Assembly (NCBI GenBank): GCA_002269645.1
Contig: NIVC01000326.1
Location: 62,001-126,000 of the forward strand
Source: Macrostomum lignano
Lineage: Eukaryota
DNA length: 64,000 nt
Direction: 5' to 3'
How positions within the stretch are numbered: the first letter of the stretch is position 1; each line of letters opens with the position of its first letter. The position numbers and the translations under genes were made by a program. Shown here one piece after another: positions 42,682 to 43,405 of this stretch. Under the pieces are notes generated by a model, which saw only the letters and a program-made list of their open reading frames with translations, made no database searches and was not told where the DNA came from.

Positions 42682-42807
42682 ACCCGCGAAGTTGTAAGAT
42701 GGGATGTGTAATTCATTTGTATACCTTCCAGTAGTAAAGATTGGTGGTAAGCTTGTTAATCCTTTTTGAACATCTAACAATCCTCCTTCAAACACTATTT
42801 GGCTCAT
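42682..42807 (-). CDS. PLA2-integrase fusion, exon 1 (42 codons)
   Basis: AAAATG start; MSQIVFEGGLLDVQKGLTSLP...ELHIPSYNFAG matches the ELH(L/I)PxYxxxG lead-in of the PLA2 Ca-binding loop. Confidence 0.8.
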
Positions 42808-43405
42808 TTTTAATAGCCTTAAAAATACATGAAAGCACCAATTGTTTTGCAAATTCTTCTATGGTTGGTTGTTTATCATTTTTTGAAATATTATCTACAG
42901 CAACTAAGTATCTTTTATTTCTCCAATTTTCAGACTTTTTAATTTGTTCTTCATCGCGATAATCAAAAGATGAAGCAGGAATAAAATGGTCAACATGCAA
43001 AACACCAATATAATCTTTTGGCACATAATAATGTTTTGTGAAATTTAACCAATCAGTAAAGAATTCAATTGAGCAACCAAGGTAATCAACAGTATGATTA
43101 TTTTTTCGAGCATTATTAGATTTTAGAAGAGAATATATTCTATTTCATGTGTTTAAAATAAGTTTGTAATTTTCATCAGTTAATCTTCTTTCATTTTGAT
43201 ATTTTCTGCGCCTTTCTATATTATTTTTATCATATTCTTTTTTCCATTGAAGCTTATATTCACGATTTTTCTCATACCATTCTTTATCATACTTTCTCTC
43301 ACAAGGTTTGCAAATACTATAATATCTATTTTGATCTCTATGAAATCTAAAATAATCCAAAATTTTCTCTTCTTTACATTTATTACAAATTTTTGTTTCA
43401 TCCAT
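42788..43405 (-). pseudogene. HNH-family endonuclease with N-terminal Zn finger; one in-frame TGA at 43145-43147
   Basis: CNKC...CKPC, then in the same frame YLGCSIEFF...HVDHFIPASSFD...N...DNISKNDK. Confidence 0.8.

Follow-up and report, generated by a model that had tools for sequence, protein, structure and literature searches.

Is the nuclease gene found beside an ORF-less group I intron the partner with which this intron spreads, or does the intron associate with another enzyme? The question is raised by a Polinton in the window (i.e., the whole stretch of 64,000 nucleotides analyzed here), in which an intron interrupts a PLA2-integrase gene that is itself adjoined by a HNH endonuclease gene. 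The first-pass annotation proposed that the two spread by collaborative homing, and the anatomy on which it relied was recovered in full: a 205-codon Zn-finger/HNH frame with one in-frame stop, which runs 20 nt into the PLA2-integrase gene (ATG at 42807) and stops 106 nt short of the 5' splice site (42682/42681), and an intron devoid of ORF.

The Polinton and its sister copies

The features considered below are located as follows.

40324..58579, strand not assigned: Polinton (family 1), 18,256 bp, AGTAGT ends, 0 GGNCC
40324..40621, plus strand: left terminal inverted repeat, target duplication GGCACC at 40318-40323
41205..42356, minus strand: PLA2-integrase exon 2, remainder of the PLA2 domain and rve integrase
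42357..42681, minus strand: group I intron, ORF-less, type A; 3' end alternatively at 42348
42682..42807, minus strand: PLA2-integrase exon 1, last codon Gly (GGT), first half of the split GGN^CC
42788..43405, minus strand: free-standing Zn-finger and HNH/EndoVII-type nuclease gene, subtype H1, 205 codons
43145..43147, minus strand: in-frame stop at HNH codon 87, private to the window copy
43433..44116, minus strand: conserved upstream ORF, 227 aa, no family, far border of the nuclease slot
58282..58579, minus strand: right terminal inverted repeat, target duplication at 58580-58585

With its terminal inverted repeats (~300 nt), 6-bp target duplication (GGCACC), pPolB, rve integrase, ATPase and capsid genes, the element is a Polinton or adintovirus-like element. 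The integrase, the ATPase and the EndoVII domain at the N-terminus of PolB are Pfam matches; the PolB and capsid frames were named by motif and position, without a Pfam match, and a double jelly-roll match was found in an element of family 2. The element is flanked by Harbinger genes, in a genome of 764 Mb that also holds the sister copies. Judging from the adintovirus-like gene set, the host is probably an animal. The window copy is decaying, as judged from the stop in its HNH gene, further frameshifts elsewhere and a departure from the PLA2 catalytic dyad that is unique among 130 scored copies. Positions 47983-50028 of the window encode a 681-aa fibre-like ORF with 57-nt repeats and an F5/8 type C domain, the C-terminal region of which is replaced by other sequence in several sister copies. 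Outside the element, a host ORF with a TIR_2 domain lies at 12651-13646 (minus strand).

Our family-1 sample derives from 139 listed matches, 137 of which were taken; four lacking exon 1 were dropped, leaving 133 loci, and 17 duplicates and two HNH-only deletion copies were left out. A second Polinton family of the same genome (family 2, PLA2 identity to family 1 ~58%) was sampled at 44 of ~55 listed loci, 42 of them scorable. Intron-less junctions were recognized via exon spacing.

A group I intron between Gly and Pro codons

The intron interrupts a loop motif of PLA2 between a Gly and a Pro codon (GGN^CC). The domain itself is best recognized on an intron-less family-2 allele, where PLA2 (PF08398, 35 bits, over the cut-off) is fused to rve. 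In the window, Rfam RF00028 aligns at 42364-42665 with 42.9 bits (E 3.5e-9), under the gathering score of 50, and no Rfam match was obtained at gathering level across the window. Scores of 50.7-85.2 bits were obtained for all eight sister loci scanned that bear the intron; the four intron-less loci scanned gave no match. The group I core is further backed by covariation in a 13-row alignment (P1, P2, P3, P6 and P7): positions are paired at 98.9% in P3 and 100% in P6 and P7, 25 of 67 pairs show two-sided change, and the covariation score is 0.289, versus at most 0.097 when the alignment is slid. The count for P4 and P5 is low because the two intron types are out of register in this alignment. 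A U.G pair is present at the 5' splice site in P1 in all 11 rows covering it, the U being that of the exon-1 GGT.

Two intron types occur in family 1, namely type A (24 loci, window included) and type B (106 loci). The 3' splice site of type A is ambiguous, as both 42357 and 42348 are in frame and both are G; homology with an independent metagenome contig (L191) makes 42357 the most likely end, and neither candidate restores Gly-Pro. An early in-frame stop lies within the intron at 128 of 130 loci (both types), so that the integrase needs splicing. The splice joint was not seen in four runs, guessed to be of RNA origin and available as contigs, and none of 21 runs listed as carrying the locus is recorded as RNA; these results are uninformative as to splicing.

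Several features of these introns deserve mention in their own right. An A-ending group I intron is known from Coxiella; here, the last base of type B is A in 70 of 106 loci and G in 25 (11 unscored). In A-ending introns (e.g., L047:2027-2329 and L081), P7 is unchanged, as is the G-C pair in the G-binding site, and the two kinds of ending (G or A) segregate among HNH subtypes. In the type A intron (42357-42681), the core has been recoded (P3, P4, P6, P7), compensatory changes included, and the guide sequence is new. An LTR-like, GGNCC-rich insert of ~825-840 nt is found in L013 (2525-3350), L194 (4400-5220), L026, L028 and L125, and landed once inside the P8 region of the intron; the copy in the L013 intron (825-840 nt) was considered as an intron-borne nuclease and rejected, as it holds no credible ORF and similar sequence occurs elsewhere in other copies. 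At L262:900-1390, a family-2-related intron with a truncated core carries in its P6 loop a 24-nt tandem array rather than an ORF. Finally, a hairpin-like unit of ~30 nt is optional in the intron (303 vs. 333 nt; P5 region in L065) and also at the 3' end of slot genes (L014, L047, L073), in both families; it is possibly a tiny mobile palindrome.

The free-standing HNH gene

The HNH frame runs on the minus strand from an ATG at 43405 to a stop at 42788. The codon-87 stop is missing from all eight closest other copies (L002-L009), which are open there. The protein has a CxxC...CxxC motif, and in a 71-protein alignment H140, N163, N172 and K175 are invariant and C7, C10, C32 and C35 nearly so; it thus has the catalytic His and Asn and the Zn-binding cysteines of a HNH (beta-beta-alpha-metal) nuclease. 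An intact copy matches PHROG 1035 ("endonuclease VII") at E 1.7e-11, within a large family (15,606 representatives at E 0.001 or better); the Pfam search did not match a HNH domain. In line with a HNH identity, the model (pLDDT 96) matches viral HNH endonucleases, namely mimivirus L246 and the intron-encoded endonuclease of Bodo saltans virus. Solved structures gave weak rows only (CAD Z 4.3, Hpy99I Z 4.2), coiled coils filling the list.

The best HNH relative outside the genome, among 150 listed, is P0014 (41-43% identity), whose reading frame continues into the core of the window-type intron family. An IMG/VR scan with P0014 detected no relatives. No HNH gene was found inside an intron among the loci examined in this genome, nor in any of the 44 family-2 loci, which have the same intron site.

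HNH presence and the intron within one genome

HNH presence had been expected to be linked to the intron, and independence of the two had been set beforehand as the observation that would count against this link. Independence is what we observe within this genome: among the 133 family-1 loci, 93 have both, three HNH alone, 37 the intron alone and none neither (Fisher p 0.56), the intron being carried by 130 loci and the HNH gene by 96. At eight further HNH loci, a type B intron adjoins the gene in six, the two others being cut off. Type A introns are found with HNH (16), with an Eco47II-like nuclease (seven) and with an acidic ORF (one), which indicates that this intron moves independently of HNH. 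In 36 of the 37 HNH-less copies, the slot is occupied, with the same borders, by the Eco47II-like nuclease. Two of the four loci with the acidic ORF (~150 aa; L021, L116, L118, L127), which stands alone or ahead of HNH, form a divergent (~82%) intron-less subfamily (L118 and L127).

It may nevertheless be that the HNH enzyme cuts at or near the intron-less PLA2 junction, so that HNH and intron are co-converted. An optional free-standing HNH gene beside an ORF-less intron, only 106 nt from the splice site, is indeed the arrangement of collaborative homing. The frame is open in 66 of 96 copies, the Bodo saltans virus intron-encoded endonuclease is its third-best fold match (E 6.7e-12), and P0014 is joined by others of its cluster, three of the five members examined having an intron-core read-through tail. 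Such tails are nevertheless seen in one of 153 HNH relatives (P0014), versus 13 of 24 homologues of the Eco47II-like nuclease from outside the genome. Besides, all three intron-less family-1 copies carry HNH (189, 189 and 165 aa), and the two 189-aa frames, open and full length, would cut themselves; the gene thus shows no dependence on the intron for protection, with the proviso that these copies are few and that exon polymorphisms could protect them.

Exchange tracts also bear on this possibility. The nine H1 copies are 99.4% identical in exon 1 and 99.9% in the intron, versus 88-96% in the flanks, and no polymorphism is shared from ~43400 to 42400: HNH, exon 1 and intron are passed on together, as a single block. 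This is the pattern expected of co-conversion, but suppressed crossing-over between the dissimilar H1/type A and other alleles would produce it too, and other 1-kb stretches of the H1 copies are likewise 99-100% alike. Moreover, the block is weak in H7 and missing in H3, H5, H12 and the main Eco47II-like class. We therefore regard homing by HNH as unlikely, while noting that it is compatible with the explanation favored below.

An Eco47II-like nuclease always found with the intron

The alternative slot gene, present in 36 of 133 family-1 copies, encodes a 167-aa protein that belongs to the PD-(D/E)XK endonucleases of a known restriction enzyme family. Pfam RE_Eco47II was matched at E 4e-5 and 4e-6 (one score under the cut-off), the Atlas neighbor clusters are Eco47II and EcoO109I, and the best fold is EcoO109I (Z 9.2, rmsd 3.9, 166 aligned; next Z 6.0), from a model of pLDDT 89; Foldseek returned E 5e-4, and the nuclease profile matched PDB sequences at E 0.1 or worse only. 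Among free-standing genes, 25 of 36 are open and all 25 keep the three catalytic-region motifs. As Eco47II is tied to GGNCC (PMC10305163) and EcoO109I cuts RG^GNCCY (PMC3089450), family membership and modeled fold lead us to predict that the Polinton enzyme cuts GGNCC.

In family 2, the intron lies at the same codon boundary and the Eco47II-like nuclease is inside it. The 42 scorable loci comprise 20 with intron and nuclease (frames of at least 211 aa in 13), one with a decayed ORF-less intron, 18 intron-less with an intact GGC^CC and three intron-less with Gly-Gln. Such composite introns are thus found at L159 and 19 more family-2 loci, and also in L191, where the same intron, site and nuclease occur with 0 GGNCC in 1297 bases. 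The gene is always accompanied by the intron (36/36 free-standing, 20/20 intron-borne) and was detected in none of the 24 intron-less copies (3 + 21), in the stretch at hand for each. Family 2 fits the rule that the nuclease does not coexist with an intact site by construction, and the three intron-less family-1 copies are too few for its absence there to be significant alone.

In a 28-row nuclease tree, the intron-borne genes of family 2 form the sister group of the free-standing ones (87/82), with further intron-borne clades around the two. This suggests that the gene left the intron for the free-standing slot, a direction which rests on that 87/82 branch and on midpoint rooting, the root being unsure. 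A prokaryote genome scan detected no relatives, which left the tree without a bacterial outgroup; scans of IMG/VR, run with the nuclease alignment and with the integrase, detected none either, and the intron pattern retrieved five IMG/VR loci, 0 with a group I intron. No methylase was found in 22 window-element frames (Pfam), in 12 proteins (PADLOC) or in 11 family-2 frames (Pfam; about half of one family-2 element).

Purge of GGNCC and an intron in the last site

The window Polinton contains 0 GGNCC, versus 21.0 (order-1) or 15.7 (order-2) expected, the lowest counts in 200 simulations being nine and six, respectively. It is the sole zero among 32 palindromes, and the rest of the window contains 140 such sites. 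CCNGG (9 vs. 21-24 expected) and CANTG (25 vs. 53-58) are lowered to ~0.4 of expectation, but present. As Gly-Pro codons always spell GGNCC, a site of this kind is not removable by silent change; Gly-Pro is itself absent from the frames of the element (0 in 5117 aa vs. 8.7 expected). As separate observations, GCNGC and CGCG are 2-2.7 times expectation in 40324-58579, and Pro-Tyr is missing from the frames counted in the window Polinton (0 vs. 8.5 expected).

The same holds across the family. In 374,862 homologous bases from the 133 family-1 loci, there are three GGNCC, all at intron-less junctions; the remaining ones, in six loci, lie within inserts or flanks. Twenty loci placed in family 1 by position have 0 GGNCC in the main frame. 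Ten longer family-1 stretches were available: the seven intron-bearing ones (6-10 kb) have 0 GGNCC versus 5.8-10.7 expected, and of the other three the intron-less L192 has the junction site only, L193 one extra and L194 three extra, inside its insert. In family 2, the intron-less L207 and L209 have the junction site only (9.9 and 8.4 expected), L203 and L206 have none, L210 has one extra, and L211 is not depleted, with four extra in 4.8 kb versus 5.3 expected; four family-2 stretches held little element sequence. Three intron-less family-2 junctions (L261, L263, L265) have Gly-Gln for Gly-Pro and have lost the GGNCC. Unrelated pPolB loci of the same genome keep their sites (observed/expected 1/3.2, 3/5.6-5.9 at three loci, 2/6.9, 6/6.0 and 11-12/17-19 at four loci), some being mildly deficient (2/6.9, 3/5.7, 11/17). 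In both families, the predicted site is split exactly by the intron. To sum up, sites are purged elsewhere, the last one is split by the intron, and the nuclease was not observed together with an intact site.

An enzyme from outside, e.g., from a co-infecting giant virus or an endosymbiont, might drive this purge, the Eco47II-like gene of the Polinton being mere cargo. Eco47II-family clusters do occur in nucleocytoviruses and phages, giant viruses are described as carrying restriction-modification systems (PMC7253447), and HNH-only copies remain GGNCC-free. However, among copies of the Polinton gene, 25 of 36 free-standing and 13 of 20 intron-borne ones retain an open frame and the catalytic motifs, the gene is intron-borne in several separate lineages, and the other pPolB families of the same genome are unpurged, which makes this scenario improbable in our view.

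A proposed immunity without a methylase

The explanation that we favor, and consider probable, is that GGNCC avoidance and the intron together confer methylase-free immunity to a GGNCC cutter acting in homing or competition. The likely partner of the intron is the Eco47II-like enzyme rather than the adjoining HNH. Thus, what stands of the collaborative homing proposal is a partnership between a nuclease and an intron that splits the site; the partner is most likely the Eco47II-like enzyme, and the pairing with HNH is unsupported in the form proposed.

Under this explanation, the last unremovable GGNCC, in the Gly-Pro codons of the PLA2 loop, would be hidden by the intron, so that intron-bearing genomes would be immune to the Eco47II-like enzyme. 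An intron-less relative in the same cell would receive a single cut, which would either be repaired from an intron-bearing genome (homing) or stay broken and be lethal to that relative (competition). Other GGNCC-rich DNA, from the host or a larger virus, may be attacked during replication. The Gly-Gln allele would escape cutting, though the PLA2 loop would pay some price for it. The nuclease of family 1 probably exited the intron to the upstream slot, and a HNH gene of an intron-associated family would now replace it in most copies, as a second mobile nuclease that would have entered the slot once the intron was close to fixation. As host DNA has ~3 GGNCC per kb, activity is likelier during viral replication than between silent integrated copies; a 5-bp cutter would need tight silencing or a non-nuclear phase. 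What speaks against this explanation is the persistence of 18 family-2 copies that lack the intron and whose site is intact.

We are rather more tentative, and just short of evenly divided, about the complete scheme: a methylase-free self/non-self system in which a restriction enzyme was made a homing endonuclease by erasure of its 5-bp site and by an intron-hidden Gly-Pro; the enzyme would spread the intron, break intron-less relatives, perhaps shred foreign DNA, leave the intron and be replaceable by HNH.

That HNH is an accessory nuclease (for genome processing or attack on a helper virus), adjacent to the intron by chance in a slot shuffled by ordinary recombination, is improbable: mosaicism extends through all segments of the region (32-51 haplotype clusters per segment), the acidic ORF also uses the slot (4/133) and a role in packaging or restriction has been proposed for free HNH genes of Polinton-like viruses (PMC12220804), but the gene is dispensable (missing from 37/133), is cleanly swapped with another nuclease at the same borders, varies in blocks in its N-terminal half on a constant catalytic half and has a close intron-borne relative.

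Comparison with known systems

Collaborative homing, like trans homing, has been defined in phages, an example being cyanophage S-PM2, with F-CphI as the nuclease and a group I intron in psbA (PMC6083498, PMC2988022). As in that system, a conserved gene holds an ORF-less group I intron with an optional free nuclease next to it, the intron is predicted to block self-cleavage, and a composite intron-borne form exists in relatives. Here, however, the carrier is an integrating virus of eukaryotes, two unrelated nucleases alternate in one slot, and the best partner is a PD-(D/E)XK enzyme whose predicted 5-bp site has become unique through the purge, instead of a long-site HNH/EndoVII enzyme. A homing enzyme of the PD-(D/E)XK class is otherwise known in I-Ssp6803I.

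Among restriction enzymes, Eco47II and EcoO109I (PF09553; PDB 1wtd) share family, fold and the D...ExK motif with the Polinton nuclease, and the motif missing from the Polinton is the core of their sites. The Polinton gene differs from them in lying in or beside a self-splicing-type intron, with no methylase found in the frames scanned, protection appearing to come from avoidance and the intron. AvaII, for its part, cuts GGWCC. Chlorovirus restriction enzymes degrade host DNA. Marseillevirus systems are described as leaving host DNA undegraded (PMC7253447).

Intron nucleases have been proposed as competition weapons for Bodo saltans virus (PMC5871332), and this role has been shown for gp210 of phage PhiPA3 (PMC11620839). 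In both cases, as proposed here, the target of the carrier is masked by the intron, and damage to intron-less co-infecting relatives is proposed or shown; besides, the window-type HNH is predicted to fold like the Bodo saltans virus enzyme. Those nucleases are nevertheless HNH or GIY-YIG, and the accessible parts of these reports describe no genome-wide site avoidance. Protist Polinton-like viruses are reported to carry ORF-less group I introns (309-376 bp) and free-standing HNH/GIY-YIG genes (PMC12220804), but the gene that holds those introns is a short one lying upstream of the capsid gene, and no nuclease partner is assigned to them. For such viruses, collaborative homing appears as speculation for helicases and replicases (PMC11296320; 10.64898/2026.10.13.758929). 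HNH domains have been described inside nematode Polinton polymerases, and PLA2X in adintoviruses. Our search of the main texts of the openly accessible literature retrieved nothing on the window intron, the Eco47II-like nuclease or GGNCC avoidance in Polintons.

Implications

Group I introns are not known from animal nuclear genomes. If the host is an animal, some 150 of its nuclear loci would carry group I ribozymes, with a terminal A in most of those of family 1. One genome contains side by side intron-less, ORF-less, composite, free-standing and escape alleles, which makes the proposed path between collaborative homing and composite mobile introns testable on natural variants. If the favored explanation is true, a restriction enzyme would have become a homing endonuclease without gaining specificity, the genome being reshaped instead, and a group I intron would have gained a direct protective function. 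Polintons would then compete as replicating viruses rather than as plain transposons.
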